This document shows, piece after piece, positions 2,196-18,052 of a DNA stretch of 64,000 nucleotides (position 1 is its first letter; each line of letters opens with the position of its first letter). The notes below the pieces were generated by a model. It was not told where the DNA came from, did not search any database, and was given only the letters and a program-made list of their open reading frames with translations. The stretch spans positions 928,001-992,000 of the forward strand of contig CBDBZU010000004.1 of NCBI GenBank assembly GCA_965213625.1. The letters are read 5' to 3'. Source of the stretch: a bacterium. Lineage in GTDB: Bacteria; UBA8248. Both the position numbers and the translations under genes were made by a program.

Positions 2196-3291
2196 ATCGC
2201 GCGGGTATTGAAGCATGACGAGAAAGGCTGCAGAGCTATCGCGGAGCGTACGGAGCATCGGGTAAGGGGTGCTTGCTTCGCCCTGAACAATTTCAGCGGG
2301 TCCCTGCGGCAAAAGAAATTCCGGGAATGCCGGGAGATGAAGAAAGCCCGCGAACAACTACTGAGATGGTGCGAGAAGAACATCAGGAGGTGTCTCGACA
2401 GAAAACGTGTACACATGCAAAACCAAAAGACACAAGCAATGACATATGCAGCGCGCCGTAGAGGGGTGGATAAGGGGCGGGCCCACTGGCGTGAAATGGA
2501 AAGCGAGGTGCACCCACTGACGTGCCAGGGAGTTGAACGGGGAGAACGGCGCGCCCGGCCGCTCGCCTGGATACAAGGCGCTGCCCACCACGCCGACGAT
2601 GGGCGTCATGAGGAAGTACAGCGATATCCTGGCGGACGAATACCTGAGCAGTAGATGATTCCGGCAGGCCGGGAGCAACGCACCCGCTATGACACCCATG
2701 TAGAAACACCGCGAAAATCTGCGGGGCGCCGATGAGGATGCAGGAATCCGCCTGGAGGGAGCCGCCCGCGTCGAGGCTGTTCGAGAAACCGTGACGGTGC
2801 CCTCCATCGGCATCGCGAAGCCCGGCGCGCACCATGATGATGCGCTCGCCCGGAGGTGGCGCAGCTACCGCAGAACCCGGAACCACAAGGTGTTCGCCCT
2901 TGGAGAAGAAAGTCCGTTCGGGTGGTCCGCCGGACGAGCCTCCGTCAGGGAGGCGAAAGAGGCCGCGATGCGCGATTGCGAGAAGAGAGGCGCTTCATGC
3001 CGAATCGTCTCGATTGACGGGTGGCCCGAAGCGAGGACTTCGACAGCCCAACTGAAGCTCACCTTCGCCGATCAGGTCTGGTACTGCGAGAATTTCCCCG
3101 ACGGCCGGCAGTGCTCGAAATTCCGGGGCAAGGGGGCAAAGCCGGCCTTGCGCGTCGAGAACATTCCCGCAGTAGCGAATGCGACCGGGAGGGCCGATCA
3201 CGAGTCCTGGCATCGGATCCCCGTCAGCCAAGGCGAATCGATGAACATGAGCCTCGGGAACCGTTCCTGCGACGGCGCTTCGACCCTTTAG
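2196..3291 (+). pseudogene. Degraded continuation or downstream gene with a DUF4189-like Cys module
   Basis: In-frame ORF 2208-2654, then another frame with stops at 2656 and 2701 leading into VFALG..FGWSAG..EAAMRDCEKRGASCRIVSIDG. Confidence 0.45.
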
Positions 3292-3361
3292 GCTAGCCAA
3301 GTCCGACAGGCTGTTAACCCGTAACCTTTTGTTTATTGTTATATATTGACAATATAATAGT

Positions 3362-4948
3362 TTGCAGCCGGCAATACACATCGATGGCGATATTCTGGTT
3401 TGCCGTTACCGTGTTGGCTCCTCGAGGAGGCGCGAGACAGTGCTGCGATTCGGATACCAAGTCGGGACCTATCGCTTCGGCAAACGGGTGCTGGGTCTCT
3501 ATTTCGCCCAGGCGGCTTTTGCGCTCGGATTTTGCGGCGCGGCCGAGCCCGCGAGCGCTTCGCTGGAACGGGAACTAACGTTGTCCGAATGCATCGTACT
3601 GGCCGTCCGGAACAATCGGGATCTCGCCGCCGGCCGTCTCGACAGGCTGGCGCAGAAGCTGTCCCTTCAGGATGCCGAGGATGAGTTCCGCCCGTCTCCC
3701 GCGCTTGGCCTGGCCCTGGAGCAGGACTCGACGGGGTCCGCACTCGTACGTGAGAATACCTCAACCATCAGGATCTCGCCCCGGGTAACGCTGCGCATCC
3801 CCACTGGGGGGAAATTCAACCTGAGCTCGGACAATAGGGTGTCGAGCGCGAACATCTCCAAACGCTACGCCCAGAGCGTGGTGATCGAGTTCGTCCAGCC
3901 GTTGCTGAGGGGCGGCGGAACCGAGGTCGGCTCCTCCGGGGTCGTGACGGCAAGGCGCGCGGAACAGAGCGGCGCCCTCGGCTTCAAATCGGCGGTCATC
4001 GGGATCGTCACCCGGGCGATCCTCGCCTACCGGAACGTCATTCGTTCGACACGCGCGGTAGAGATCGCCAGGCGCTCGGTACAGCGGGCCCGCAAACTGC
4101 TGGAGGTGAACCGGATCCTGATCCAGACCGGCAGGATGGCCAGGCAGGATATTGTACAGACCGAGGCGAACATCGCGGAGCGCGAGCTCGGCCTGACCGA
4201 AGCGGAGGGTGCGCTGAACGACGCCCGCCTGGCCCTGATCAATATCCTGGAATTCGACAGCCGGACCCGTATCCGGCTGACTGAGCCGTTGCGCATGGAG
4301 GAGACGAAGCACGAGGCCGACCGCGCCGTGCATCTGGCGTTGCAGAACCGTACCGACTATCTCCAGGCGCAGCTGAGCGTCGAGAACGCCGAGAACGCTC
4401 TCATGCTGGCCGACAACGCGCGCAAGTGGGGTCTGGACCTCTCCGTGTCGGCGAGGTTCGGACACAGCGGGAGTTCGTTTTCGGAGGCCTACCGCCGGTT
4501 CGACGACAACTACGGGGCGGGGCTCAGCGTGGACATCCCCGTGGGAGCAAACGCGGACGCCCGGCAGCGCAACTACGAGAGGGCTAGGCTCGCCCTGCGA
4601 CGGTCGCACTTGCGAGTCGCGGAGCTGCGCCAGTCGATCGAGGTCAAGGTGCGGGCCGCCCTGCACGATGTCAAGGTGTTGTTCCGGCGCGCGGAGCTCG
4701 CCCGGCGGGCCAGGGAGCTGACCGAGCGGAAACTCGAGATCGAGCAGGCCAAGCTGCAAGCCGGTTTGACAACGAACTTCCGCGTCGTCCGGTTCGAGGA
4801 CGATCTCGTCAGGAGCCAGAACAGTGAAGTCGGAGCCGTCATCGGGTATCTCAATGCTTTGACGGCGTTCGACCAGACGCTGGGGACGACGCTCGATACC
4901 TGGGGGATTGAGTTCGAGTCGTCGGTCGATGTGGGGGTGGGCAAATGA
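3362..4948 (+). CDS. TolC family outer membrane channel (start uncertain, probably later)
   Basis: LTLSECIVLAVRNN, QPLLRGGG, two helical OEP repeats, KLQAGLTTNFRVV. Confidence 0.9.
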   Translation: MQPAIHIDGDILVCRYRVGSSRRRETVLRFGYQVGTYRFGKRVLGLYFAQAAFALGFCGAAEPASASLERELTLSECIVLAVRNNRDLAAGRLDRLAQKLSLQDAEDEFRPSPALGLALEQDSTGSALVRENTSTIRISPRVTLRIPTGGKFNLSSDNRVSSANISKRYAQSVVIEFVQPLLRGGGTEVGSSGVVTARRAEQSGALGFKSAVIGIVTRAILAYRNVIRSTRAVEIARRSVQRARKLLEVNRILIQTGRMARQDIVQTEANIAERELGLTEAEGALNDARLALINILEFDSRTRIRLTEPLRMEETKHEADRAVHLALQNRTDYLQAQLSVENAENALMLADNARKWGLDLSVSARFGHSGSSFSEAYRRFDDNYGAGLSVDIPVGANADARQRNYERARLALRRSHLRVAELRQSIEVKVRAALHDVKVLFRRAELARRARELTERKLEIEQAKLQAGLTTNFRVVRFEDDLVRSQNSEVGAVIGYLNALTAFDQTLGTTLDTWGIEFESSVDVGVGK

Positions 4949-5600
4949 TGATCGAAGCATCCCCGCTCCCGGACGGGTCAGCGAGGGCGCGGTGCGGGAC
5001 TCGCTGCTTCAACGCAACGTGCTGATAAGCATGAACGACGGGGTCATGATCATTGATTCCGGCGGCCGCATCGGGATCGCCAACCTCGCAACTTCTCGTC
5101 TGCTCGTTCAGGCTTGCGCTGACGTCGAGTCTAAGGCGTTCACCGAGGTTTTCCTCCATCTCGGCGGGCTGGAGAAATTCAGCGATACCATGCTCGCGGC
5201 GGTCTACGACAGGGGGTTCGGGACCCGCTCCAAGGTTCGCGTGCGTCTCGGTGACGACACGGAGCGGTCTCTCGCCGTCACGACCTCCTACCTGGTCGAC
5301 CACGAGGACGGGGAAACCCGGAGAATCGGCAGCGGCGCCGTGTTCATCGACATCACCGAGATCAAGGCGCTGCGCAAGGCCGAGCAGGAGTTCGCAGCCT
5401 CGATGGGGGAACATAACGTCAGGCTCCGCGACGCCTATCGCTAGATTGAAGAAACGAACAAGGCCCTGATTTCGGTGCTTAAAAAGATGGCGGTGGTGCG
5501 GTGGGCCGCCATGGTTCTCGTCGTCGTCCTGATTGGGGGGCGCCGCATGGTACGTCTTGGACGAGACGGGGGCACGTTGTAGGCCGAAATTGCGACAGTG
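4945..5600 (+). pseudogene. Remnant of PAS-domain periplasmic adaptor (paralog of 7649-9409)
   Basis: PAS-like VLISMNDGVMIIDSGGRIGIAN...AVFIDITE; TAG at 5442-5444; frame continues into a TM helix (VVRWAAMVLVVVLIG); adaptor domain missing. Confidence 0.8.
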
Positions 5601-6306
5601 TCGGCAGCGGCGCCGACGGATGCGGAAGATGTGCCGACCCAGGGTGAATGCCCCGGTTACTTTCGTGACTAAGCCGCCGCGTGGCGGAGGTCTCCGCTCC
5701 GTATTACTGCGACGGCTTTACGCCAACCCTTCCCGGCGAGCTTGCGCCGGATCATGGTCCGCCTGCATTCCATCCAACACTCCGCTTCATCTCCCTCCGC
5801 GCCTGTGTTCCCTTCCCGTCGCTCAGGACGGTCAGGTCCGTGTCCACAGTCGCTACACAATCGGTTGCCGGTCGATTGCCTAGCGCATGGCGATGCAATA
5901 CGCTCGGCAATCCAATTTTATGCGTCGGAATCGACAGGATCGTCCCCGCCACGAGCGCCGTCAGCGCATGATTTCGGCAATATCGTCGGCCGAGAGGTGG
6001 GGGAGGACCGCGACGGCCTTGCAATGCGTGGAGGGTTGGGTTGGAAGCGGGCCGGGCGGATCGAAAATCGGGCACGGTTTCCATCCGCGCCAGTCCCAGG
6101 CGAGGCTGGAGGGGAGCAACCAAATGGTCCGAAATTCTCGGAAAGCTCGCGGGAAATCGAAGAATTACTCCGCGATAAGCACGAGAACAAACTCGAAAGC
6201 ATCGTTAGCGACGGGCGCCTGGAGATGTCGGAGGCACTAGAACCAGCTTGAGGCGTGTGCCAGCCATTCATCCGGAAACGCCCGTAGAGGCGGAACGAAA
6301 CCGACC

Positions 6307-6660
6307 TCAGACAGGAACCTCGACGCACTCGCTTGGCGTAATCCGTTCTACCGTGTCTTTGTATGTGGCCACTGAAATGGACTTCGACGCTTCGTCGCTG
6401 TTGAATACCAGCTTGCCCGAGACTGAAGCGAAATCCATCCCTTGCGTGGCCGATCCGCCAGCCGTTTCGTAAGACCAGCGATAGGACCAGTCGCTCGGCG
6501 GGATGCCCGTTTCTAACTTGAACACTGCGTCATTGCCTTCGCATGCTTTCGCATCTGACGCCGACGCGGCCGGAGAGATCATCGCCCCGGCTGCCAGTGC
6601 GGCCGCAAATACAGAGCACTGAACGACCCGCGCGAAGCCCTTGTTCGAAGCAGTCTTCAT
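6307..6660 (-). CDS. Secreted Calx-beta-like protein (C-terminus probably truncated)
   Basis: Signal peptide; YETAGGSATQGMDFASVSGKLVF...ISVATYKD; paralog of 12339-12857. Confidence 0.75.
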   Translation of the reverse strand: MKTASNKGFARVVQCSVFAAALAAGAMISPAASASDAKACEGNDAVFKLETGIPPSDWSYRWSYETAGGSATQGMDFASVSGKLVFNSDEASKSISVATYKDTVERITPSECVEVPV

Positions 6661-6842
6661 AATGGCGTCTCCTTTTCCTCTGAATGCGCCCCAGAAATCG
6701 GCCAGTATGCGTTATTGATAGAACAGAGACAAAACTACTTTGTTACAAAACCCCACTATCTCTACGATATCATGGTGTTAGTGGCAATATCAAACTTGCC
6801 CGCTCCCCGTGATTACAGGTCGAGTATTTCACACGGTATGGG

Positions 6843-6872
6843 TTGACATTGACAATATGGCCTCGCTAGAAT
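6843..6872 (+). promoter_or_regulatory. Sigma70-like promoter upstream of the second export operon
   Basis: TTGACA (6843-6848), 18-nt spacer, TAGAAT (6867-6872). Confidence 0.5.
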
Positions 6873-7149
6873 TTCCCGATAAGCTCAGAGCGTCTTGCGG
6901 CGTGGCCACCGCGATTCTGCCAGACAGTTCTCGGTTGCCCCGCTGAAATGGGGTAGATTCCCGGAGGAGGGATGCCCACGAAAGGCTCTCGCTTGTCACC
7001 GTAGTCTCACAGAGGGTGCACGTGACCAACGGAATCGATGTTCGTCGCACGTGGACAAGGCCGGTTGGATCGTCCGGGTAATCGACGGCGGCAAGTCTCA
7101 GCCTGCCTTGGACTGCGTTCGGCTCATCGCCGGATCTGGCGAGGTGTTT

Positions 7150-7648
7150 GTGAGCCGTCGTCTCCGTTCTATGGGTCTGGGCGCTGGTTCCTGCGACCCC
7201 CCAGACGCCTACGACGGCGGACGATCTCCCTGGCTGCGCCGCCAATGTTTGCGACTTGACGCTTAAGGACGTGATCGGGCTGGTGCTGGCGCGCAACCGC
7301 CCGATCCTCAACAGCCGGCTCGACCGGGAGGTGCGACGATTTTCGCTGGACGTATCCGAGGACCGCTGGAGCCCCCGTGTCACCATCGGCCCATATGCTA
7401 GCAGGAACCGGCAGGACGACAAGGAGGGCTTCCGCACGTACACGAGCCTGCGCGTTCGCGCTCGGGTGGGACGAAAACCTGACGAAGAGGTCCGACGGCT
7501 CCAGTTCGCAGGCCTTCAACTTTTCCTAGCCCTTGCTGAAGGGCGCTTGGGCTCGTATCGACAGCGCAACGGTGCGCCAGGCGCAGTTCGACCGGATTTC
7601 CGGACAAGTGCTGGATCGCGGGGACATCCGGCTGGAGGCAGTTCTGCA
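7150..7648 (+). pseudogene. N-terminal remnant of a second TolC (internal deletion)
   Basis: DLTLKDVIGLVLARNRPILNSRLDR...SLDVSEDRWSP aligns with the TolC N-terminus ELTLSECIVLAVRNNRDLAAGRLDR...SLQDAEDEFRP; the rest is absent. Confidence 0.75.
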
Positions 7649-9409
7649 ATGACGGACCGTGGCCCTGACATTTACCGTACACTCCTGGAGAACCTGTCCG
7701 ACGGGGTGATGGTCATCGGTTTCGACGGGTCGGTCAGACTGGCGAATACCGCCTTCTGCCGGATGTTCGGTCTCGACCCCGCTGAAGCGGTCGGGGATTC
7801 CTTCGGGGAGCTCTTTGTCACGTTTGAGGGCTTCGACGAGTTTACCCAGTTCGTCCTCGACACCGTTGCCGAACGCGGTGAGATCGCGCGGCGCATCACG
7901 CGGGTTCGCGCCGGCGAGGAACTTCGGTCGCTGTCCGTCACGACCTCCTCCCTGACGGCGGAGGGAGAACGGCTGGCGGTGATAGTCGTGGTCTCCGACA
8001 TCACCGAAGTTCGGGAGTTGCGCGAGACCGAGTTGCGCCAAGCGGAGGTCATCGAGACACAGCTCAGCGAGCTCCAGGGCGCCTATCGCGACCTTGAGAC
8101 CCGGAACGAGGCGCTCTCGGCGATGACGAGGCGCGTCAACACGGCACGCAGCGCGGCGATGTTTTTTGTCATGGTACTGTTCCTCGCCATTGGCGCCTTG
8201 TATGTCCGGCCGCTGGATTTCTTCATCGCCACTGCTACGCGCGACGCCGGCACGGGCATCGAAGTCGGCGATCCCGGTGTGCTGCCGACTGTGACCGTTC
8301 AGCCCCGCGAATTCCAGTCCACCATCGCGCTCAAGGGCCATCTAGCGCCGGGCCGCGTCGCTGAGATCGTCAGCCCGATCGAAAGTCATGTGAGCGAGGT
8401 GCATGCCGCCCCCGGGGACCGGGTGGCAGCGGGCGATCCACTGGTCGATCTCGATACCGGTCAGCTCGACGCGGACCACCGGCGGGCCCAGGTCGAGCAT
8501 ATCAAGGCGCGTGATCGGCTTGTCAAGATCGAGGCCTGGGAGAAGAGCGCCGACATGGCGCGCGCCCGACGCGCCTTGCGGCGGGCGAAGATCGCGTTCG
8601 ACGACGCGGAGCGGCATCTCGGCGAGACCGCCTTCCTGCTGGAGCAAGGACTAGTCCCCGCTTCGCAGCACGAGAATGCGCAGCGGCAGCGGCAGAACCG
8701 GACCCTGGACCTTAAGGAGGCCCAGCGGGAACTGGAGGCGGTAAAGGCGAAGGGCGGCGACGAGGCGCGGCGGGTGGCGAGGCTGGAGGCCCAGACGGCC
8801 CAGGACCGCCTGCGCACGCATGAGGAGAAACTGGACCTGGCGCGGGTCTCGGCGCCGATCTCCGGGGTCGTCATAAAGGCGGATGGCCCTAGGGACAAGC
8901 CCCTGACGAAGGGACGCCTTGTGGGACAGGGAGAATTGATGCTGAGCATCGCGGATCAGGAGCGCCTCGCAGTGGTCACGAGCGTCAACGAGGTGGATGT
9001 GAGAAAGGTCGAGGCCGGCCAGCGGGCCTGGATCACCGGCCCCGGATTTCCCGGCCTGAGGGTCGTAGGCGCCGTGAGCCGCGTCTCGTCGCGCGCGGAC
9101 CGCAGGGGGCGTCGTCGCAACGTGCCGCAATTCGAGGTCGTCGTCACGCTCGACAGGTTGGAAGCGGAAGCCCGCCACCGACTGCGAGTCGGTATGTCGG
9201 CCTATGTCACGATCGTCGTCTACCACCGCCCGGCGGTCCTGATGGTCCCGATCGGCGCGGTAGGGCAGAGCGGCGGCGAAGCTTGGCTGCGCGTCCTCGC
9301 CGGCGGCGTTGCAGAGCGGCGCAAGGTCGAGCTCGGCCTCACCACGATCGATTCGGTCGAGGTGGTGAAGGGCCTCTCGCCCGGCGACAAGGTCGTCCTG
9401 GCCCGATGA
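7649..9409 (+). CDS. PAS domain + coiled coil + TM + MacA/HlyD-type periplasmic adaptor fusion
   Basis: RBS GGAGG then ATG 7649; PAS LLENLSDGVMVIGFDGSVRLAN...VVSDITE; TM MFFVMVLFLAIG; lipoyl halves (GDRVAAGDPLV, VSAPISGVV), LRVGMSA, VELGLT, GLSPGDKVV. Confidence 0.9.
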   Translation: MTDRGPDIYRTLLENLSDGVMVIGFDGSVRLANTAFCRMFGLDPAEAVGDSFGELFVTFEGFDEFTQFVLDTVAERGEIARRITRVRAGEELRSLSVTTSSLTAEGERLAVIVVVSDITEVRELRETELRQAEVIETQLSELQGAYRDLETRNEALSAMTRRVNTARSAAMFFVMVLFLAIGALYVRPLDFFIATATRDAGTGIEVGDPGVLPTVTVQPREFQSTIALKGHLAPGRVAEIVSPIESHVSEVHAAPGDRVAAGDPLVDLDTGQLDADHRRAQVEHIKARDRLVKIEAWEKSADMARARRALRRAKIAFDDAERHLGETAFLLEQGLVPASQHENAQRQRQNRTLDLKEAQRELEAVKAKGGDEARRVARLEAQTAQDRLRTHEEKLDLARVSAPISGVVIKADGPRDKPLTKGRLVGQGELMLSIADQERLAVVTSVNEVDVRKVEAGQRAWITGPGFPGLRVVGAVSRVSSRADRRGRRRNVPQFEVVVTLDRLEAEARHRLRVGMSAYVTIVVYHRPAVLMVPIGAVGQSGGEAWLRVLAGGVAERRKVELGLTTIDSVEVVKGLSPGDKVVLAR

Positions 9410-9434
9410 CCCGGAGCGACAGTTGGCGGGCGGG

Positions 9435-10175
9435 ATGCTGAAGCTGACCGATATCCGCAGGTCCTACCGGATCGGGCCGGTCACGACCGAGGTCCTGCGG
9501 GGCGTCGATCTGGAGGTCGAGGCGGGCGACCTGATGTCGATCATGGGGCCGTCGGGCAGCGGTAAGACGACACTCATGAACATTATCGGCCTGCTGGACC
9601 GCCCGAGCTCGGGTGGCTGCGTTCTCGACGGGCGCGACATATCCGGGCTCCGGGACGACGAACTCTCCGCTCTGCGGAGCCGGTATATCGGCTTTGTGTT
9701 CCAGTCCTTCCACCTACTGCCGCAACTGACTGCATTAAAGAATGTCTGCCTGCCGCTGGTCTATCGGGGCACCGGGCGGCCGGAGATGCGCCGCCGGGCT
9801 CTGGATATCCTGGAGCGTGTCGGCATGGCGGACCGGACCGGCCACCGGCCAGACCAACTTTCCGGCGGGCAGAAGCAGAGGGTCGCCATCGCCCGGGCGC
9901 TGGTGGGCGAGCCGGCCCTGCTGCTCGCCGACGAGCCGACCGGTGCGCTGGACACGGACACGGCCGACGAGGTGATGTCTCTGCTGCGGCGGCTGAATGA
10001 GGAGCGCGGCATCACGATCCTGATTATCACGCACGACCCGTCGGTCGCGGACCTGTGCGCGCGGCGGACGCGCATTCGCGACGGCAGGCTCTTCGAGCCG
10101 AAGGCTGGGCGCTCCGGGTCCGCCCTGCAACAATCCGGTCACGCCCCGGACGCCGCGGCGGCGTCCGGGGTGTAA
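9435..10175 (+). CDS. MacB/LolD-type ABC transporter ATP-binding protein
   Basis: GPSGSGKT, IGFVFQSFHL, LSGGQKQR, LLADEPTGALD. Confidence 0.95.
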   Translation: MLKLTDIRRSYRIGPVTTEVLRGVDLEVEAGDLMSIMGPSGSGKTTLMNIIGLLDRPSSGGCVLDGRDISGLRDDELSALRSRYIGFVFQSFHLLPQLTALKNVCLPLVYRGTGRPEMRRRALDILERVGMADRTGHRPDQLSGGQKQRVAIARALVGEPALLLADEPTGALDTDTADEVMSLLRRLNEERGITILIITHDPSVADLCARRTRIRDGRLFEPKAGRSGSALQQSGHAPDAAAASGV

Positions 10176-10190
10176 CGCGGGCGTCCGACG

Positions 10191-11390
10191 ATGTCGAGAA
10201 CGGTCCAAGTCCTTGCGAACAATGCCCGCGAGGCGGCCGACAGCCTGCGCCGGGCAAGGCTGCGCACGGTGCTGGGCCTGGTCGGCGTCATGATCGGCAT
10301 CTCCTCGGTCATTGCGATGGTCTCGCTGGGCGAGATCGCCAGGGAGCAGGCCCGCAAGCAATTCGAGGCGCTCGGAACCGACATCGTTGTCGTCCGCAAG
10401 TCGGCTGCCGCGGGAAGGGCCGCGATCGGCCTCCCGGACGCCCTGCAATTGGCGGCGGTGGTCCCGTCGATCGTCGAGGCGGCGCCCAGGATATCGGGAC
10501 GCGGGACGTTCCGCTACGCCGGCCGGGAGGTCGGGCGGGGCGCGGTCCAGGGCGTCACCCTGTCCTTCGCGAGCGTGAACAAGCTGACGCTGCGGGAGGG
10601 CCGGTTCGTTACGGACCTGGATACCGACAGATACTGGTGCGTCATCGGCGCCGAGGTCGCGGAGAAAATGCGCGCGGCGGGGGCGGATCGCCTCACGGGG
10701 ACGCTCATTGAGGTCGATGAGGTTCTCTTCACCGTCGTGGGCGTGCTGAACCGCAAGGAGAAAAGCTATGCGCTGCCGTTCCAGGTGAATGCAGACAAAT
10801 CGGTCTTCGTCCCGATAACCACAGCGCAGCGGGTCGTCTCCGACCCCGGAATCGAGGTCATCGTCGCCCGATCCGGCGGCGGCGTCCATTACGCGGCGGC
10901 GGTAGAGGATATCCGGTCGTATTTCCTCAAGCGCGCGCCCGATCTCGGCCTCAATATCGTCACCGCGAAGGAGTTGATTGCCCGGATGGAGGCGCAGATG
11001 GGCATTTTCACCTTGTTGCTGGGCGCGGTGGGCAGCATTTCGCTGATCGTCGGCGGGATCGGAATCATGAACATCATGCTCGTGTCCGTGGCCGAGCGGC
11101 GCGCGGAAATCGCCATCCGCCGGGCACTCGGCGCTCGGCGGCGGGACATAAGGAGCCAGTTCCTGATCGAATCCGTCATCCTGACAGTCGTCGGCGGCGT
11201 GCTCGGCGTGGCGCTCGGCCTGGCGGCAACCTGGACGATCTGCCGCTTCACCGGCTGGGACTTCCTGATCTCGGGGCTCTCCGTGGCCAGCGGCCTCGGC
11301 ACGGCGGTGGCGGTCGGCCTGTTCTTCGGGTTCCAGCCCGCCCACCATGCCTCGCGGCTCGATCCCATCGCCGGACTCCAGGGCAAGTAG
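10191..11390 (+). CDS. MacB-like ABC permease (MacB_PCD + FtsX)
   Basis: LRTVLGLVGVMIGISSV; SLIVGGIGIMNIMLVSVAERRAEIAIRRALGA; QFLIES. Confidence 0.95.
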   Translation: MSRTVQVLANNAREAADSLRRARLRTVLGLVGVMIGISSVIAMVSLGEIAREQARKQFEALGTDIVVVRKSAAAGRAAIGLPDALQLAAVVPSIVEAAPRISGRGTFRYAGREVGRGAVQGVTLSFASVNKLTLREGRFVTDLDTDRYWCVIGAEVAEKMRAAGADRLTGTLIEVDEVLFTVVGVLNRKEKSYALPFQVNADKSVFVPITTAQRVVSDPGIEVIVARSGGGVHYAAAVEDIRSYFLKRAPDLGLNIVTAKELIARMEAQMGIFTLLLGAVGSISLIVGGIGIMNIMLVSVAERRAEIAIRRALGARRRDIRSQFLIESVILTVVGGVLGVALGLAATWTICRFTGWDFLISGLSVASGLGTAVAVGLFFGFQPAHHASRLDPIAGLQGK

Positions 11391-11429
11391 AAAGCCGGTC
11401 GATGTCATGCAACCTGCAAAACCGGGAAC

Positions 11430-12257
11430 TCAGCAGGATGTCTTGAGTGTCCCATCGCAGTTCTTGAGGTTTTGCACCTGTCCCAGGTCCCCCTTGTACG
11501 AGGTTTCAACTGCGAGGATTCCCCCAGTCTTCCCCAATGGATCGTCAACCCGTCTTTCGCAATGGGTCTTTATGGAGCACTGTCCCGAATCCACTCCGAC
11601 TTGGGTGCTGTAGACGCCGGTATAGTTACAGGTGACTTTGGCCGAACTCGCATTCCATGCGCTCGTGCATTTCTCGACCGTTGGGCAAGAAGTGGACAAC
11701 TCGTTGTTGCAGAAATCGAGCTGTTTCACATTGCCGGGCGACCCGTAGAAGGACGCGGCCACCGCCAGGGTCCCGCAGGAGGTCGAGACATGACATTGCT
11801 GGCCTTGATAGGTCGACATGCTGTGGGACCCGTAGGACGAACCGCATCTCTGGCTGGCATCGCTGTCGTTCCACGACTCATTGCATGCTGTCTCCAGGGC
11901 GGTTTGTTGATCAGCGGAGAGGCAGGAGCCGATTTTGAGCTTGCCGTCGCAACTCACCAGATCGCGCATGTCATCCAGATCGCCGGTGACAGTTTGCTGG
12001 GTTGATGGCACGCCATTCAACTTCCGGCACCTGGCCGTGACGCTGCACTCTCCGTTCGGGGTGTCAAACCAGAATTGGGTGCCGGGAGCCGGGCAATGAT
12101 TGGAGGCGTCGCTTTCGTACCACGCTTGAGCACAGTCGCCATATGTGGGGGCATTCTGCGCGTAGACCCCCGGCGCGGCGAGGAGCCCGCCTGCAAGCAC
12201 CGACAGGACCAGCGCCAGCGTGGGGAGGATTCGGTATGAGGTTCTCATGGCATTCAC
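11430..12257 (-). CDS. Secreted cysteine-rich protein with three ~75-aa repeats (cyanovirin-N/CVNH-like)
   Basis: Signal peptide; three repeats of CxxxWxxSxAxxxC...Cx[VI]xxxC...LxxC[DN][GN]xL..C, six Cys each. Confidence 0.8.
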   Translation of the reverse strand: MNAMRTSYRILPTLALVLSVLAGGLLAAPGVYAQNAPTYGDCAQAWYESDASNHCPAPGTQFWFDTPNGECSVTARCRKLNGVPSTQQTVTGDLDDMRDLVSCDGKLKIGSCLSADQQTALETACNESWNDSDASQRCGSSYGSHSMSTYQGQQCHVSTSCGTLAVAASFYGSPGNVKQLDFCNNELSTSCPTVEKCTSAWNASSAKVTCNYTGVYSTQVGVDSGQCSIKTHCERRVDDPLGKTGGILAVETSYKGDLGQVQNLKNCDGTLKTSC

Positions 12258-12338
12258 CTCCTTTGTTCTCCGCCATGGTCGGCGGGGGTTACGGGTTTGA
12301 AGCGGTATCGCCCGCGCTCATTGCACGGCCGCGCGGAC

Positions 12339-12857
12339 TCACTGGCAGTACTGACCCGCGTTCCCGCATCCCATCTTGACCGTTTGATCGTTGTCCTGGA
12401 TCTGGCCCTTCAACGTCATATTGCGCGGCATGGACCGGATGCTGGATGTCGGTGAAACCCACCCCGTGACACCGCGGTAGAGCCCGTTGACCTCCTGGTC
12501 GTAGAGCTTGAGCTTGAAGACTTCCGGGTCTTCTTCCTCGCTGTCGTCAATCGTGTCTACATAGACCTTCTGCTCCTTGACCCCCGAGTTGAAGGTCACG
12601 GTGCCGGTGGTCTCTTCGTAATCCTCGTCCTTCACGGCCGCGCCGTCTTGCGTCTTGTACTTGTAGCGCACCGCCCAGCCGTTCGGCGCGGCCCCGAGCT
12701 TGACCGTGAACTCCATCTTGTCGCCCTCGGTTGCGCCGGCGTCCGCGCCGTGCGCCGCCTGCGGCGCGCCAAGCGCGGCGCACACCGCCAGCATGACAGT
12801 TGCAACGGCCGCGAGCCATGCGGCCCGTACGGATTTTCTGTTCGAGTCCTGTTTCAT
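12339..12857 (-). CDS. Secreted single Calx-beta domain protein
   Basis: Signal peptide; ATEGDKMEFTVKL..YKTQDGAAVKDEDYEETTGTVTF..VDTIDDSEEEDPEVFKLKL. Confidence 0.85.
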   Translation of the reverse strand: MKQDSNRKSVRAAWLAAVATVMLAVCAALGAPQAAHGADAGATEGDKMEFTVKLGAAPNGWAVRYKYKTQDGAAVKDEDYEETTGTVTFNSGVKEQKVYVDTIDDSEEEDPEVFKLKLYDQEVNGLYRGVTGWVSPTSSIRSMPRNMTLKGQIQDNDQTVKMGCGNAGQYCQ

Positions 12858-13678
12858 AGCCTTTACTCCTTCACGATGGTGGTGCCTACTGTGATCGCCC
12901 CCGATCCGACCGACGTTCCCATCGAATTCGCAACATCGTTGGCGCCGATCCCCCAGGCCATCTCCGTCGGCACAGTTCCTGGTTTCTTTGACCGGCCGAA
13001 GCGATGTTTATGGTGACAATGATAATACACGGATGGTTGCTTGACAATTTTTTTTTAGGTCGGCGGGCAGGTCGTTCGTGCTTTGCGGTGGTGACGAGAC
13101 GGCGGCCAGGCGGATCGAGGCGATTCGGAGGAGGACGGACCGCCTCGACTCAGGCCAATCTCTGCCAAGCCGCACTGTGCCCCCCAATTATTCCTCGAAA
13201 GCGACATCCACGTCTTCTGGAATGTGTCGCGGATGATAAGGCGGATGTGTGGAACGGGTTATGGTGGATTCACTCGTAAATCGCCCGTTTAGTGACGGTG
13301 GGGGGGGTCCTGCGGGGGTGAATTCCCTGTAGTTTATTGAAATTGTTGCAAGTAATTGGTTTTTTGAATCTCGCTCAGGAGTTGTTTTCTTAAAGGTGTA
13401 ATCAAGTCGAAAGCGGATGAATTCAAACTTCTGCGTATCCTAGATCATTCCTGTCGGGCTGCTCACCCAAATTCAGTTCGCAACGGTTTGCCTGTGCTCA
13501 TGTACTGGTTGGCACCATTTAGCTGTGAGTCGAAAACATCCTTGACTTAACATTATTGGCGAGCATATAGAATTGCGTGTACGCCGTGTAGATATCCCAA
13601 TGAAAGCACAAAACCATCCCCTGGGAATAAATTAGAACTCACTAAGCGCATTTCTAGTTCAAATCCATAGAGGTAATT

Positions 13679-14811
13679 ATGAGCAAGAAGAATCGGCAGC
13701 ACTCAAGGGACGTCATATCACTCATCTACACACGTAGTGGCTCTCGCCTATACGGTTGTATTCGATTTTTTCGTCCCGAACCCAATCAGCAACATATTGA
13801 GCCGTTCCGCCAAAGCGCACCGTTTGTTATCTCGCAATCAATTGGGCCAAAAGAAACCATCGTATACGGAAGCGTCAATGAATTGATAAGGGAAATTCGC
13901 CGTCTGCTCGATGACGTATCTGAATGCAACGAGAAATTCAAGTCAACACTACGTCTTGGCGGTGTGATCACGGATGAAACTCGCGACAATTCAGGAAGAA
14001 AAGTCGTAACTATTCCAGAAGGAGAAAAAGGGGACAAGCTGTTCTACGAATACGTAAGAGAAGTGACCAATATTTTGCTTCTTCTTTCGACTCAAACGAG
14101 GAATTTGTTTCAACTTTACCCCAGATTCAATAATTGCTGTATCTCAAGATTTGATTATGAGGGGAATAAAGTGGACAACATCCCCCTGAAAGAACTTTTC
14201 GATTATTTTGTACATAACCGATACTTGTTCGTAGATGGCGAGCATGTCGTGGATCTATTTTCAGATAAATTCTCGCCCAAGTCTTCGATTTCCCAAACAT
14301 TCATGGGCTACAAAATCAGATGGAGAGAATATCTCGGCGCCATTCGAAGCGTGACTGACAATGTAAAGATGAGGGACTTGACCGGATTACTGCGAGGTCG
14401 CCTGAAAAACTTTCATCTGGTTCGTCCCACAAGGACATCGTTTTCCTGGTCCAGAATTTGGAATCGTTTTCGAATTTGCTCGCTACGAAAATTTCCGATA
14501 ATCGGTACACATCCATGTTGAGTTTGATGTTTGACGAAAGAGCGAATCAGGACCTCCCCGATATCGGGGAAAAGAATGAGAGTGTTGAACAGTTTGTCAC
14601 CTTTACAGCACTTCATATTAATATCCACGAAAAGCTCAGCGAGAAAAAATTTGAGATTCGGGTGCGCTGCAAATTTACTTTGCGTGACAATCAGAAACAC
14701 CCTGTCAAAGCGGAAGATCTAGATAATTACAGCATAGATGTAGGTTATGAGAAGTTCTTTGACCTTGTGAATAGCGTTTTCGGCGATGATCCTCTGGTGA
14801 GTTCTGTCTGA
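13679..14811 (+). pseudogene. Low-GC hypothetical gene split by a 1-nt frameshift in an A-run (~14405-14409)
   Basis: ORFs 13679-14521 and 14458-14811 join (LKKLSSGSSHKDIVFLVQNLESFSN) if one A is added. Confidence 0.6.
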
Positions 14812-15064
14812 CGGACATGGTGCTGATGTTGGACCCTTCGGGTGGATTCGGGACGTTTCATTCCTCTTTAAGCTGATGTTTGTTCGTTTTGGTTGCTGCC
14901 CTTGAAGGATACGGACCCATGTCTCTTCAACCTTTCCAACAACACCCACCATATCTCAAGGTCCGACTGCCCCTTGGGTCATCATACCCTCTCAATGCGG
15001 GCTGTGACCTCGAAGAACAGGACCGGCATTATAATTAGGTCTGTGTTTCAAGTATCGTTTCGGT

Positions 15065-15149
15065 TAATCCGCATATCCAGCGGATTATCAGGAATGATTT
15101 TTCCGTCATTAAGATATTATGTTGAATAATCCGCGTTTTTTGCGGATAA
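15065..15149. promoter_or_regulatory. Two 23-bp inverted-repeat operators upstream of abiEi
   Basis: TAATCCGC-N7-GCGGATTA (15065-15087) and TAATCCGC-N7-GCGGATAA (15127-15149). Confidence 0.75.
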
Positions 15150-15155
15150 TAAGAC

Positions 15156-15983
15156 ATGATACATGATCAACGAAAAACATTGTCATCCTATACTTCCGGT
15201 TTGCTGTCAGAGGGCCGTGTAGTCTTCTCGGCAGATGAGGCGGAGCAGGCGCTGGGAATCGGACGAGGGGCGTTTCTGGACGCCGCCGAACGGCTCCAGC
15301 GCCGCAGGCATCTTATCAGGCTGCGGAATGGGTTCTATGTCGTGGTTCCGCCCCGGTACGCATCCTGGGGCGCTCCGCCTCCGGATTGGTATATCGATGA
15401 CCTGATGCGGCACGAAGGGCGACCGTATTATGTAGGTCTTCTCAAGGCGGCCGAACTGCACGGCGCTACCCATCAGGCCGTTATGGAGTTTCCCGTTGTC
15501 ACGAACAAACGGCTGCCCGGTATCCACGCTGGCAGAACCCGGATCGTTTTTCATTACCGAAAAGACATGAAAGCCGTATCGGACGGCGTGGAAAACCGGA
15601 AGACCGATACGGACGCGATGAGCGTGTCGTCCGCCGAACTCACGGCACTGGACCTTGTGCGCTATTCACATGCCGCCGGAGGCATCGACAACCTCGTCAC
15701 CGTCCTTGCCGATCTCGGCCCGAAACTCGGTTCGCAGGAACTGGCGCGGCTTTCATCCGCGGCGGAGCGCTCGATCGTTCAACGTCTCGGCTATCTGCTG
15801 GACCGTCTCGGGCACGGGGACCGAACCGGACCGCTGTACGACGCGCTGTCCGGCCGCGGCGCGTTTCCGTGGGTCGAACTCGACCGCAAGGAAACCCGCG
15901 ACCCAGAATTCACGTCACCCCCGCTGGAACGTGACGAACACTGGCGCGTCATTGTCCGTCGCCCGCCTGAGGTCGACGAATGA
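15156..15983 (+). CDS. abiEi: Type IV toxin-antitoxin antitoxin, AbiEi family
   Basis: N-terminal wHTH, GFYVVVP, YYVGLLKAAELHGA, ELTALDL, QRLGYLLD; overlaps the toxin (ATGA). Confidence 0.88.
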   Translation: MIHDQRKTLSSYTSGLLSEGRVVFSADEAEQALGIGRGAFLDAAERLQRRRHLIRLRNGFYVVVPPRYASWGAPPPDWYIDDLMRHEGRPYYVGLLKAAELHGATHQAVMEFPVVTNKRLPGIHAGRTRIVFHYRKDMKAVSDGVENRKTDTDAMSVSSAELTALDLVRYSHAAGGIDNLVTVLADLGPKLGSQELARLSSAAERSIVQRLGYLLDRLGHGDRTGPLYDALSGRGAFPWVELDRKETRDPEFTSPPLERDEHWRVIVRRPPEVDE

Positions 15984-16840
15984 TCCCCCGGATGAACATC
16001 ATCGCATGGGGGAATGTCGTCCCCTGGGCGGACCTGCGCCAGGTCGAACAGGATCTCATCATCAGCCGCGCGCTCGTCGAACTGTTTTCCCATCCCGGAC
16101 AGGCCGGACAACTGCGCTTTCGCGGCGGAACGGCGCTTAACAAGCTCCATTTTCCTCAACCCCTTCGCTATTCGGAGGACATCGACCTCGTCAGGACCGA
16201 GACCGGACCGATCGGCCCGGTTCTCGATGCCGTCCGGGAAACTCTCGAGCCATGGCTGGGGCGGGCGGGTTACGACCAGAGCGCCACGGCTCCCAAACTC
16301 CGTTTCCGGGTCGACGCGGAAGACCCCTCCGTCGGTGCCCCGATTCGCCTGAAAATCGAAATCAATACACGGGAAACCAAAGCGTTCGACCCGCCGGCCT
16401 CCGTTCCGTTCGCAGTGGAAAACCCCTGGTTCAGCGGGGCGGCGGACATACCGACGTTCTCGACTGAGGAAATCCTTGCGACGAAACTCCGGGCGCTCCT
16501 TCAGAGAAACAAGGGGCGCGACCTGTTCGATCTCTATCATGGGTTGCGCACGTTCGAGGAATTGAACAGGGCGCGTGTCGTGAAAGGTCTCGTGTTCTAT
16601 CTTGAAGAATCGGGATTGCGCATTTCCCGCGCCGAGGCGCAGCAGCGAATGTTCCCGAAACTCGCGAATCCCGCTTTCCTTACGGACATGCGGCCCCTGG
16701 TTTCGGCCGAGCACGCCGAGACCCTGGACGAAGACTCCACGAAGGAAGCGTTCAGACGGGTCTTGCGAGAACTGATCGACCTCATCCCGGGTGATGACTG
16801 GGCACGGACCCCGGACATGATCGAGCGTTTCGCGATTTGA
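15980..16840 (+). CDS. abiEii: Nucleotidyltransferase toxin, AbiEii/AbiGii family
   Basis: QVEQDL, FRGGTAL, RYSEDIDL, KLRALLQR..RDLFDL. Confidence 0.92.
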   Translation: MIPRMNIIAWGNVVPWADLRQVEQDLIISRALVELFSHPGQAGQLRFRGGTALNKLHFPQPLRYSEDIDLVRTETGPIGPVLDAVRETLEPWLGRAGYDQSATAPKLRFRVDAEDPSVGAPIRLKIEINTRETKAFDPPASVPFAVENPWFSGAADIPTFSTEEILATKLRALLQRNKGRDLFDLYHGLRTFEELNRARVVKGLVFYLEESGLRISRAEAQQRMFPKLANPAFLTDMRPLVSAEHAETLDEDSTKEAFRRVLRELIDLIPGDDWARTPDMIERFAI

Positions 16841-16897
16841 AGTGGCGAGGCGGGCAACGGCTGCAAAAGAGAACACTCTCGAACGGGTCGTCGAGGA

Positions 16898-18052
16898 ATA
16901 TCTCTGTTCCACACGTCTTGAAAGGACAAAGCTTCGCTTGAACATGTATTTGTGCAAATGAAGCTGTCCGTAATCGACAGCGAGAATAGCGAGATGATTG
17001 TGCCGCGCATCTCGGAATACGCGAATACCCAAAACAGAGTGAATGCCGCGGACTTTTTTTCCAATCACCCCTTCCATATCAGGATGGAGGAATTTTCGCG
17101 ACGAATCTGGGCGCCGGCAAAACAGGGCGCGCTACGCGAGACGAAATGGTTTTATGAAAGAGCTCGAGATCAATATAACGATGCGCAGTCAAAACTGACC
17201 CGAGCCGAGCTGCATCGTTTCAGGGCGGAATACCCCAAACCACAGATGTTCACTAAAACTGATCTCGCGAAGTTTGAGAATGTATGGGATGACCACCCGA
17301 AATGGGTGAACCTGGGTGCGCAGAAGAACTTCGCGTGTTTTGCGGCTCGGATCGGTATGGAGTGGCTCAAGTCAGCCGATACCTTTAACGAATTCTATTA
17401 CCATCGTGCCATTGCACGGGCAATTATCTTTCGGCGAACCGAGAAACTTGTTTCAGAGCAGCCGTGGTACAATGGGGGTTACCGGGCAAATATCGTCGCG
17501 TACACGATTGCAGCAATCAGCGAAATATGTAAGCGGCACAACCGGGCGATAGATTTCATGTACATTTGGAACACTCAGGCGCTTCATCAGTCTTTAATTG
17601 ATGCCCTCGAAATTGCCGCCCGATTTGTCAATGACGATATCACGCAGCCACCGCCGGGCATTTCAAGCATTTCAGAATGGTGCAAAAAAGAGGGTTGTTG
17701 GGAGAGGATTTATGCACGGCTTTCGCAATTAAAGACCAAGCTTCCAAAAAAGTTCTGGGATGATCTCGTGTCAATCCAGAAACAGAAGGCTGAAGCGCAG
17801 GCAGCGAAGAAAACATAGAAGACCGATAACGGGATATATGCGCAACGGCAGGTGTATGAGATATCGTCTGATAAGTGGACGTTGATACTGGAAGCGGGAA
17901 TGAAAGACAAATTGCTGACACCAAAAGAGATAAGTATTCTACGAATTGCGCAGCAGATACCGGTCAAGATTCCGACAGAGAAGCAATGCGCCGTGCTCAT
18001 CGGTGTGCTTGAAAAAGCGGAGCAGGAAGGACTTTCCATCAGGAATGTTTGA
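16898..18052 (+). pseudogene. AIPR family (abortive infection) protein, C-terminal remnant
   Basis: VFVQMKLSVI, ISEYANTQNRVNAADFFSNHPFH, KWFYERAR, GYRANIVAYT; N-terminus missing; stops at ~16918 and 17816-17818. Confidence 0.85.

Follow-up and report, generated by a model that had tools for sequence, protein, structure and literature searches.

The locus described here raises the question of whether the periplasmic adaptor of a tripartite exporter can serve as a signal-controlled switch and, if it can, which cargo such a switch would release. Transcription is commonly regarded as the level at which tripartite pumps are controlled. The hints of direct control via the cytoplasmic end of the adaptor come only from deletions in MacA and DevB (PMC5985334). 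The stretch in question, hereafter the window, comprises 64,000 nucleotides (nt) of a UBA8248 bacterium (GCA_965213625.1, contig CBDBZU010000004.1, positions 928,001-992,000), and positions below are those of the window unless another locus is named. An initial annotation, made from the sequence alone, had drawn attention to a gene within it, here termed adaptor_B, in which a PAS sensor domain appeared to be fused to a MacA-like adaptor, and had proposed a sensor-gated secretion system with neighboring Calx-beta and Cys-rich proteins as its cargo.

Our analysis shows that the machine encoded here is a pump of the MacAB-TolC type in which MacB is split and the adaptor bears a sensor domain, that its genes for TolC, adaptor, ATPase and permease are conserved together as a unit of four, and that genes for small Calx-beta and Cys-rich proteins are non-randomly linked to it. 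The reading that we prefer, at a probability of roughly 55%, is that of a MacAB-TolC-type (type VII ABC) exporter with a sensor-bearing adaptor and the neighboring proteins as cargo, present in this genome in a mosaic state.

A PAS domain joined to a MacA-type adaptor

Profile searches with adaptor_B (Table 1) recovered PAS_4 from Pfam with 51.2 bits (cut-off 23.1) and PAS with 40.4 bits (above its cut-off); PAS, PAS_8 and PAS_9 likewise match at residues ~8-123, and HlyD_3 and HlyD_D23 match further toward the C-terminus. The NCBIfam models tell the same story, with sensory_box (TIGR00229) at 58.9 bits against a cut-off of 22.9 and RND_mfp at 117 bits against one of 94.9, while those for MacA and DevB match more weakly. 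In an AlphaFold2 model built on 118 relatives (mean predicted local distance difference test score, pLDDT, 82.3), the protein begins with a PAS-type α/β domain at residues 6-117 (strands 19-24, 28-31, 79-88, 91-104 and 107-117 with helices between them; pLDDT 66-86), continues into an unbroken helix at 119-182 and, after a low-confidence or disordered stretch at ~185-210, ends in a complete adaptor body that consists of a long helical hairpin (271-396) and β-domains. The best matches among solved structures are to MacA in MacAB-TolC, both by Foldseek (9qgy_G, E 2e-24; 5nik_D, E 1.6e-21) and by phmmer against the PDB, where MacA is the top match (6.1e-16). Profile scores and model thus agree that the N-terminus folds as a PAS domain, and the architecture proposed in the initial annotation, namely PAS domain and helix ahead of a single transmembrane helix and a MacA-like part, is borne out by Pfam, NCBIfam, AlphaFold2 and Foldseek alike.

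The protein lacks a signal peptide and has, as read from the sequence, basic residues ahead of the hydrophobic stretch at ~168-186, so that the PAS domain and its helix are predicted to lie in the cytoplasm. With the PAS domain and about 50 helix residues on that side and the rest in the periplasm, adaptor_B would have precisely the topology that an adaptor needs. Its cytoplasmic part of ~165 residues (PAS plus helix) departs from the short tail of E. coli MacA; this is a variant feature and offers no ground to exclude adaptor_B from the MacAB-TolC pump class.

The passage from the PAS domain to the helix is marked by a conserved DIT junction. Across 118 close relatives D117 never varies, and conservation at I118, T119 and E120 is 90% or higher; D117 is still kept in at least 90% of a set of 104 diverse full-length representatives, and in the model the helix begins at residue 119. 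A junction of this kind is typical of PAS domains whose signal is passed on by a C-terminal helix. A complex prediction for the PAS domain and helix (residues 1-165) with the ATPase scored 0.01 against a mark of 0.32 and, having been made without controls, says nothing either way.

The pump and its conserved operon

The product of the gene behind adaptor_B finds its best NCBIfam model in MacB, of which it covers positions 4-232 of 648 (E 4.3e-77), followed by LolD and DarD; its score stays below the whole-protein cut-off for MacB because only half of the fused protein is present. It is 90-92% identical to its counterparts in three related loci (L011, L012 and L017). The next gene encodes a permease that matches MacB positions 263-645 (E 1.9e-50), with MacB_PCD at residues 26-243 and FtsX at 280-392. 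The fold matches of the adaptor, together with an ATPase and a permease that match the two halves of MacB, identify the machine as a MacAB-TolC-type pump with a split MacB, and NCBIfam, phmmer and Foldseek concur in this with the initial annotation. Type I secretion of the HlyBD-TolC kind was rejected as a candidate, the transporter being of the MacB/FtsX type and the candidate cargo having N-terminal Sec-type signals; the HlyD model TIGR01843 gives adaptor_B 52.6 bits against a cut-off of 208.

A pattern scan with one genome per species recovered 62 loci, 61 with a PAS-adaptor (L011-L071) and one with a PAS-less relative (L072). A TolC match stands directly 5' of the adaptor in 60 of the 61 PAS-adaptor loci (there is none in L028, and that in L013 is only partial), and an ATPase and a permease directly 3' of it likewise in 60 (in L043 the contig stops inside the adaptor). 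The four genes are therefore a conserved unit. PAS domain and adaptor are a single gene in every one of the 61 loci, so that homologues in which the two are separate genes, which would have spoken against the initial annotation, were not encountered. In L028 the ATPase and the permease are fused in one gene (11829-13835, + strand), as in canonical MacB.

A family of adaptors with exchangeable sensor domains

A word-indexed search returned 246 relatives of adaptor_B. Among the 120 listed, all but 2 (P0062 and P0063) carry PAS families, and most are 577-616 amino acids (aa) long and cover 99-100% of adaptor_B at 56-85% identity. Their source names are few and generic, such as 'PAS domain S-box protein' and 'HlyD family efflux transporter periplasmic adaptor subunit'. 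When 1.84 billion representatives were searched exhaustively and without a profile, a wider circle of 400 clusters (50% identity) emerged at E<=1e-30, many of which align to adaptor_B from end to end at identities down to 26-30%. These numbers mark the PAS-adaptor fusion as a large conserved family and no accident. The initial annotation had arrived at the same conclusion from the occurrence of the fusion twice in the window, an argument that falls away since it rests on two broken operons.

Conservation along the protein points in the same direction. Across the 104 diverse full-length representatives the entropy is 2.35 bits in the PAS domain, 2.25 in the linker helix, 2.18-2.41 in the adaptor domains and 3.55 in the periplasmic linker; by this measure the PAS domain and its helix are as constrained as the adaptor core, and the periplasmic linker is free to vary.

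Some relatives align only from the helix onward and have a different N-terminus. Among 27 that we scanned, this position is occupied by a GAF domain in 17, by GAF and PAS in 3, by a cNMP-binding domain in 1, by PAS in 4 and by no such domain in 1; the remaining one, P0168 (1064 aa), is a PAS-adaptor joined to a MacB periplasmic domain and may be a gene-calling artefact. That PAS, GAF and cNMP modules are interchangeable at one position argues for a real signal input at the N-terminus, beyond a mere scaffold, and this swapping of small-molecule-binding modules is the strongest argument that the family offers.

Calx-beta and Cys-rich genes beside the pump

Small Calx-beta open reading frames (ORFs) were found with a profile built from them and counted in 59 non-redundant loci, L016 and L023 having been dropped as duplicates. 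A Calx-beta gene lies at most 5 kb from the operon in 35 of the 59, and in 26 of the 46 loci whose flanks extend for 5 kb or more on either side. Secreted neighbors, which the initial annotation expected at homologous loci, are thus present in 35 but were not found in the other 24. The density of Calx-beta genes per 10 kb declines from 2.9 in the first kilobase to 0.3 in the fifth and 0-0.1 beyond, an enrichment of ~30-fold beside the operon. They occur on either side of it and on either strand, in 1-5 copies per locus, and belong to several divergent subfamilies in variable order. Outside the cassette, none of the other families recurs in the flanks of more than 6 of the 61 loci.

The linkage reaches into a deep branch of the family, represented by a second locus (L075) of the same-genus genome G020: here the adaptor is 35% identical to adaptor_B, and three Calx-beta genes lie 0.9-2.4 kb behind the permease. 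A locus of another genome, G013, encodes immediately ahead of TolC a relative of the Cys-rich protein that is 120 aa long and has one repeat (E 8e-7). Orthologues of CalxB, the Calx-beta protein encoded behind the pump in the window, occur in at least 11 loci at 77-85% identity, and the tail of this subfamily, GCGNAGQYC[QD], is conserved. Another small Calx-beta subfamily (in L028, L031, L033, L034, L041 and L055) has a recurrent C-terminus ending in [FW]GE. These two tails are possible sorting or recognition tags. The C-terminal Cys loop was rejected as a general export tag, being found in only 12 of 69 small Calx-beta ORFs, all of one subfamily.

By a crude rule, signal-peptide-like N-termini were called in 59 of the 69 small Calx-beta ORFs and 26 of 27 Cys-rich ORFs; among the pump proteins the same rule made no call for the 63 ATPases, 6 for the 61 adaptors and 11 for the 61 permeases.

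The disulfide-rich repeat protein that the initial annotation had noticed beside the second copy of the pump is present as described. It has no match in Pfam or NCBIfam and belongs to a family with three ~80-aa repeats and 18 conserved Cys. In the closest clade we counted 27 such ORFs in 16 loci, each with 18-20 Cys, and among 5.8 billion proteins relatives form 30 clusters only, none of which has a Pfam family of its own. A Calx-beta domain is fused ahead of the Cys-rich module in ORFs of L019 and L040 and in 3 of the 30 clusters. A Foldseek search of the PDB with the AlphaFold2 model (mean pLDDT 80.8) returned nothing at E<=0.001 (best E 0.078), and the 18-Cys repeat protein thus represents an orphan family without a recognized fold match in that database. 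The top three VIA-align matches are all cyanovirin-N (CVNH) lectins, with Z of 5.9, 5.5 and 5.0 over 50-54 residues (root-mean-square deviation 2.2-2.8), values below the tool's reliable level and rated by it as a possibly common arrangement; the model would thus bear a weak likeness to cyanovirin-N-type lectins.

A further cluster of these genes occurs elsewhere in the same genome (L076, G000:C4:14000-33900). It holds two Cys-rich genes, 95% and 59% identical to that of the window, and two Calx-beta genes, and it retains the last 60 codons of the permease (98% identical), which marks it as a displaced piece of a cassette. Beside it lie genes for two phage-type integrases, an ApeA-like HEPN protein and a type I restriction subunit. 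The cluster is repeated at ~C4:4118-4124 kb, with identical scores at both contig ends, which suggests a single locus counted twice through an overlap of the contig ends.

The Calx-beta and Cys-rich genes are thus non-randomly linked to the pump, and this linkage makes their products candidate cargo.

A mosaic of two broken operons

The features of the pump region are collected in Table 1.

Table 1. Features of the pump region in the window, with the parts of adaptor_B
Feature	Position (nt)	Strand	Residues (aa)	Description
TolC_A	3362-4948	+		Intact TolC/OEP outer-membrane channel, genus-native; Pfam OEP 7.9e-32, in two stretches
adaptor_A stub	4908-5639	+		Pseudogene that retains PAS domain, linker and membrane helices; cut off near residue 240 of 614
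Junction filler	5640-6350	none		~700 nt between the native fragment and the acquired cassette
CalxA	6307-6660	-		3'-truncated small Calx-beta gene with Sec signal; Pfam Calx-beta 6.4e-9, 36.3 bits (cut-off 27)
TolC_B remnant	6930-7648	+		Upstream region, decayed 5' part and last ~60 nt
adaptor_B	7649-9409	+	586 in all	Intact PAS-MacA-type adaptor
adaptor_B, PAS domain	7664-7999		6-117	
adaptor_B, linker helix	8000-8149		118-167	
adaptor_B, membrane helix	8150-8206		~168-186	
adaptor_B, variable linker			187-212	
adaptor_B, periplasmic adaptor	8285-9406		213-586	
ABC ATPase	9423-10175	+		Corresponds to the N-terminal half of MacB; Pfam ABC_tran 1.5e-33
Permease	10191-11390	+		Corresponds to the C-terminal half of MacB; MacB_PCD 3.1e-32, FtsX 4.2e-21
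Cys-rich protein	11430-12257	-		Sec-type signal, three ~80-aa repeats, 18 Cys; candidate cargo
CalxB	12339-12857	-		Small Calx-beta protein with Sec signal and C-terminal Cys-x6-Cys loop; Pfam Calx-beta 1.6e-12, 47.9 bits (cut-off 27); candidate cargo

The initial annotation had seen the order from TolC to PAS-adaptor twice. Both pairs of TolC and adaptor are indeed there, but they amount to two broken fragments rather than two systems. The PAS regions of the two copies are 34% identical, which makes them old paralogues, and the copies are linked only by DNA repeats of 30-46 nt. A recent tandem duplication was rejected, there being no long DNA repeat between the copies beyond these short matches.

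Copy A (3386-5639) has 92% nucleotide identity to a locus of G020, in which both TolC and a 614-aa PAS-adaptor are intact; the homology ends at 5639. TolC_A, whose real start probably lies downstream of the TTG at 3362, shares 90.6% aa identity with its G020 counterpart over 520 aa, and the DNA mismatches at codon positions 1, 2 and 3 number 30, 13 and 47, a pattern indicating that the gene has remained under purifying selection. The adaptor_A stub, by tblastn 74% identical in aa to the intact G020 adaptor, has in-frame stops at 5442-5444 and ~5580, and its mismatches of 12, 19 and 19 show no excess at third positions; a short PAS-bearing ORF persists within it at 4908-5444 (+), and a search of the bacterium's own genome returned the region with one TAG. 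The stops, the lost third-position excess and the cut at about residue 240 together identify copy A as a native operon of which TolC alone survives. The ORF directly 5' of TolC_A (2791-3291, +) matches DUF4189 weakly, at E 3.7e-4 and short of the cut-off, and a fragment 50% identical to it occurs in L070. The filler that follows the stub (5640-6350) matches none of the fetched loci, is unique in its own genome and has ORFs without a Pfam match.

Copy B (6930-12875) has 84-87% nucleotide identity to loci in multi-megabase records of other lineages, titled Alphaproteobacteria, Paracoccaceae, Thalassobaculaceae, Rhodospirillales and Candidatus Binatia. Its own TolC is a ruin: relative to L012, the segments 8391-9060 and 9940-10052 are kept, 9061-9939 (879 nt) is gone and a further 17 nt are deleted, and the remnant has stops in all three frames and 74-77% nucleotide identity, versus 84-87% for the remainder of the cassette. 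The last ~60 nt are preserved, including the GGAGG ribosome-binding site ahead of the adaptor_B ATG; the long ORF around adaptor_B extends over 7256-9409, and the actual gene begins at this ATG at 7649. CalxA has 83% nucleotide identity to L013 8595-8934, and this homology stops at window position 6351, so that it has lost ~46 codons from its 3' end (117 aa, versus 163 aa in L013). In L013 and L018 its counterpart is a divergent gene upstream of TolC. CalxA should accordingly be counted with cassette B as its upstream divergent neighbor, and the arrangement described in the initial annotation, with one Calx-beta gene downstream of each copy, does not hold.

In four public short-read runs (from one study and possibly from the source sample) positions 3300-8602 are assembled in one piece with a single base different, and the junctions between copy A, filler and copy B are therefore real and no artefact of assembly. 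In the same four runs, short contigs 95-99% alike pile up over 8400-12900 with a summed depth up to ~30x that of 3300-8400; this would fit many near-identical copies of the cassette in co-resident genomes, and we draw no conclusion from it, as depth of this kind is no copy number.

If the pump works, it would use TolC_A, which lies 2.7 kb upstream of adaptor_B and is 38% identical to cassette-type TolC, or some other outer-membrane channel. Just 5' of the window (L077, G000:C4:912000-928100) is what its ORF lengths and order (363, 1042 and 489 aa) suggest to be an RND-type efflux operon, whose third ORF, the only one of L077 matched to a family, is the second OEP/TolC match of the genome; a third OEP gene lies at 2.12 Mb. 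Further channels would thus be available to the pump. Two other loci (L013 17880-19370, -; L021 4044-5500, -) hold, beside a complete cassette, a TolC gene behind which no more than the first 55-60 residues of a PAS-adaptor remain, and the exchange of one cassette for another, with the break falling within the adaptor gene, may happen repeatedly.

Horizontal spread and genomic surroundings

In 40 genomes searched, adaptor_B has relatives at E<=1e-30 in 3 of 22 from the same genus and in 0 of 18 outside it, and these are 37-42% identical. Proteins 78-85% identical over the full length come from many metagenome-assembled genomes, whose records are titled Alphaproteobacteria, Paracoccaceae, Candidatus Binatia, Acidobacteria and Gammaproteobacteria. 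A quick maximum-likelihood tree places adaptor_B within a well-supported clade of 27 rows that mixes taxon labels on very short branches; the genus-native adaptors fall in a clade far from it, together with two records that bear the title Candidatus Binatia. Cassette B thus appears to have been acquired horizontally and to be common to unrelated bacteria.

These bacteria are apparently associated with sponges. Several of the bin-name series are presumably from sponge microbiome studies. Record titles include Candidatus Poriferihabitaceae and Porisulfidus, and the name Poriferihabitaceae occurs in a sponge genome note with associated metagenome bins (PMC12859430). Calx-beta proteins are among the eukaryote-like proteins enriched in sponge-symbiotic Actinobacteriota (PMC11706023), and Calx-beta is a building block of the sponge aggregation factor (PMC5400394); this gives the cargo proposal a biological setting and is no proof of it.

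The surroundings of the pump region fit a variable island. An IS110-family transposase fragment (2-691, +) shares 87% nucleotide identity with DNA close to G020's second pump locus, an ankyrin-repeat protein of the eukaryote-like class (1257-2195, +; Ank_2 4.7e-33) is encoded just upstream of the pump region, and a stretch of low G+C content (13000-17818; 43-48%) carries an AbiEi/AbiEii pair and an AIPR protein; it is from these features that we suppose such an island.

Proposed mechanism and its alternatives

MacB moves no substrate across the inner membrane; ATP is used to squeeze periplasmic substrates out via MacA and TolC. STII is delivered to the periplasm by Sec and acquires its two disulfides there before it is expelled, and dispersin, of 10 kDa, is exported by a related pump and is said to fit the cavity. 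Removal of the cytoplasmic part or the membrane helix of MacA abolishes stimulation of the MacB ATPase, and deletion of the DevB N-terminus blocks export and not assembly (all PMC5985334). In the light of these deletions, the sensor domain of the family described here would sit on a known control point.

We propose that this control point, which in MacA and DevB is the N-terminus on the cytoplasmic side, has here grown into a domain that senses a ligand or a state. An intracellular signal, which could be a ligand, a redox change or a partner, would be relayed along the rigid helix and the membrane anchor, and the state of the sensor would switch on or off either the stimulation of the MacB ATPase by the adaptor or the assembly of the pump. 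The likeliest cargo in this clade would be the neighboring small Calx-beta proteins and the three-repeat 18-Cys protein, exported by Sec, folded in the periplasm and expelled via TolC in a second step, like STII and dispersin. In this particular genome the native TolC_A would cooperate with the acquired adaptor, ATPase, permease and cargo genes. Both the gating of the pump by the PAS domain and the pump-dependent export of its neighbors are what we infer from the sequences.

Several observations weigh against this proposal: 1) In 24 of the 59 loci there is no Calx-beta gene within 5 kb, and the pump is therefore not always encoded beside such proteins. 2) The presence of Calx-beta changes at least 14 times on the adaptor tree. 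3) The genome itself holds Calx-beta and Cys-rich genes without an adjacent intact pump. 4) With ~135 aa for mature CalxB and ~240 aa for the Cys-rich protein, both exceed STII and the 10 kDa dispersin in size. This makes the cargo step the weakest link, even though a modular bead-string protein or a single β-sandwich could conceivably pass where dispersin does. 5) In the wide family (104 representatives) the PAS pocket has no conserved polar residue, Cys or His, and for want of a conserved Cys or His no cofactor can be named. 6) The cassette's own TolC is destroyed here, and function hangs on the 38%-identical TolC_A. 7) The taxon labels of the related records are the titles given by their submitters.

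The first three of these points are also those that favor a different division of labor, in which the pump, like many of the MacB type, exports some other substrate (a small molecule, say, or a glycolipid, a siderophore or an antimicrobial peptide), and the Calx-beta and Cys-rich genes are passengers of a mobile island; we regard this as rather unlikely, though the likeliest of the alternatives. The 149 flanking ORFs of 22 Calx-less loci belong to unrelated housekeeping, mobile and defence families and contain no alternative conserved neighbor, secreted or other; the substrates of the MacB family are very diverse (PMC5985334), and the locus lies in a variable region with its IS110 fragment, AbiE pair and AIPR gene. 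Passengers, however, would hardly explain an association that outlasts changes of side, strand and copy number in several clades, including the 35%-identical deep branch, and in which the Calx-beta density drops ~30-fold within 5 kb without any other co-travelling family; and the displaced cluster in the same genome keeps a permease fragment and so is itself cassette-derived.

It is unlikely that the PAS domain is no sensor at all and serves as a structural module for the oligomerization or docking of six adaptors around the MacB dimer. PAS domains are often dimerization modules, the family lacks conserved ligand-type residues and conservation alone cannot tell a scaffold from a sensor; against this, relatives fill the same position with GAF and cNMP-binding domains, which are small-molecule binders, and with GAF+PAS tandems, and the DIT junction between PAS domain and helix is conserved. 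To much the same degree we doubt that the locus in this genome is a dying relic of two decaying operons without a working pump. None of adaptor_A, TolC_B and CalxA is whole, rearrangements concentrate in the region and scars of a TolC with a PAS stub are seen in L013 and L021 as well, yet adaptor_B, ATPase, permease, Cys-rich protein and CalxB are full-length, without stops and 81-92% identical to intact relatives, the codon pattern of purifying selection is found in TolC_A and not in the adjacent stub, and the ribosome-binding site and ATG of adaptor_B have been kept. Least probable among these alternatives is that the Calx-beta and Cys-rich proteins do not go through TolC and are periplasmic partners, either accessory subunits or targets of MacB mechanotransmission (compare FtsEX acting on EnvC), since, for all that many MacB-like proteins act on extracytoplasmic partners without transport (PMC5985334), that the small lipoprotein YbjP is bound to MacAB-TolC (title of PDB 9qgy) and that protein size speaks against passage through the channel, their 1-5 copies, divergent subfamilies and variable order look like a repertoire of effectors or cargo and not like a fixed subunit, the TolC within the conserved unit implies that something leaves the cell, and 24 of 59 loci do without Calx-beta proteins.

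Wider implications

The new elements that emerge from this analysis are the exchange of PAS, GAF and cNMP domains on one adaptor body, the linkage of Calx-beta and orphan Cys-rich genes to the pump, a cassette found across phyla and the mosaic state of the locus. A natural family with exchangeable sensor domains would make the question of the adaptor as a switch directly testable and would point to small-molecule control of secretion or efflux, and an exporter that travels between phyla with Calx-beta proteins would be a concrete candidate for the delivery of such proteins by symbionts.

In its widest form, which we consider doubtful, the exporter reading would have sensor-adaptors as a general and unrecognized post-translational switch of pumps, a clade-specific two-step secretion of folded, disulfide-rich host-interaction proteins, and a cassette traded across phyla among sponge symbionts as a 'host-interface' kit. 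Were this true, a PAS, GAF or cNMP domain would pass a signal from the inside out via one helix and gate a MacB-type machine, whose cargo would be a new lectin-like 18-Cys repeat and Calx-beta modules that resemble those in sponge aggregation factors.

Comparison with known systems

The closest characterized relative is MacAB-TolC of E. coli (5NIK, 9QGY, 3FPP), with which the pump shares an adaptor made of hairpin, lipoyl, barrel and membrane-proximal domains with an N-terminal membrane helix, a MacB-type ATPase, a permease with periplasmic core and FtsX helices, and a TolC in the operon. It also provides the precedents both for two-step export, that of STII, and for control of the ATPase via the cytoplasmic and membrane part of the adaptor (PMC5985334). 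The differences are equally clear: whereas MacA has a short tail, the adaptor here has ~165 extra cytoplasmic residues and is ~20% identical to MacA, MacB is split in two genes (fused in L028), and the candidate cargo is 3-5x larger than STII.

In DevBCA-HgdD of Anabaena, too, ATPase and permease are separate and are joined by an adaptor and a homologue of TolC, and the N-terminus of DevB is needed for export and not for assembly (PMC5985334). The DevB and DevA models of NCBIfam match the present proteins weakly (E 3.4e-17 and 4.2e-60), below their curated cut-offs, and the system is no member of that equivalog. Unlike the adaptor described here, DevB has no sensor domain, and the substrate of DevBCA is a heterocyst glycolipid.

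The Aat system of enteroaggregative E. coli, which exports dispersin and of which an acyltransferase forms part, differs in that no PAS-bearing adaptor has been reported for it and in its unrelated cargo families. What the two have in common is a MacB-based pump with a small Sec-dependent surface protein encoded nearby (PMC5985334).

The nearest precedent for the fusion itself is a group of GAF-HlyD proteins published in 2015, for which 'a regulatory and sensory role' was proposed and whose function was called unclear (PMC4452313). Here, too, a cytoplasmic sensor-type domain is placed on an HlyD/biotin-lipoyl adaptor, and GAF-bearing relatives of adaptor_B exist; in contrast, the 2015 loci (SecA_DEAD/Peptidase_M50) have a SecA-like ATPase and an M50 protease and no MacB, and neither PAS fusions nor MacB partners are described for them (PMC4452313). 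The first 300,000 characters of a Chem Rev review contain neither 'PAS domain' nor 'sensor domain' (PMC8277102). The view of the initial annotation that no PAS-adaptor fusion had been characterized therefore stands, in that we found no paper on PAS-bearing periplasmic adaptors in a literature search with subscription journals outside its coverage, but sensor-adaptor fusions as such were already in print with the GAF-HlyD proteins.

With regard to its mode of action, the system may be compared with LapD, an unrelated protein that sequesters a protease and is no part of a pump. The comparison is one of working only: in LapD, a cytoplasmic ligand-binding domain controls a periplasmic output via a membrane-spanning helix, and this output concerns a surface or secreted adhesin.

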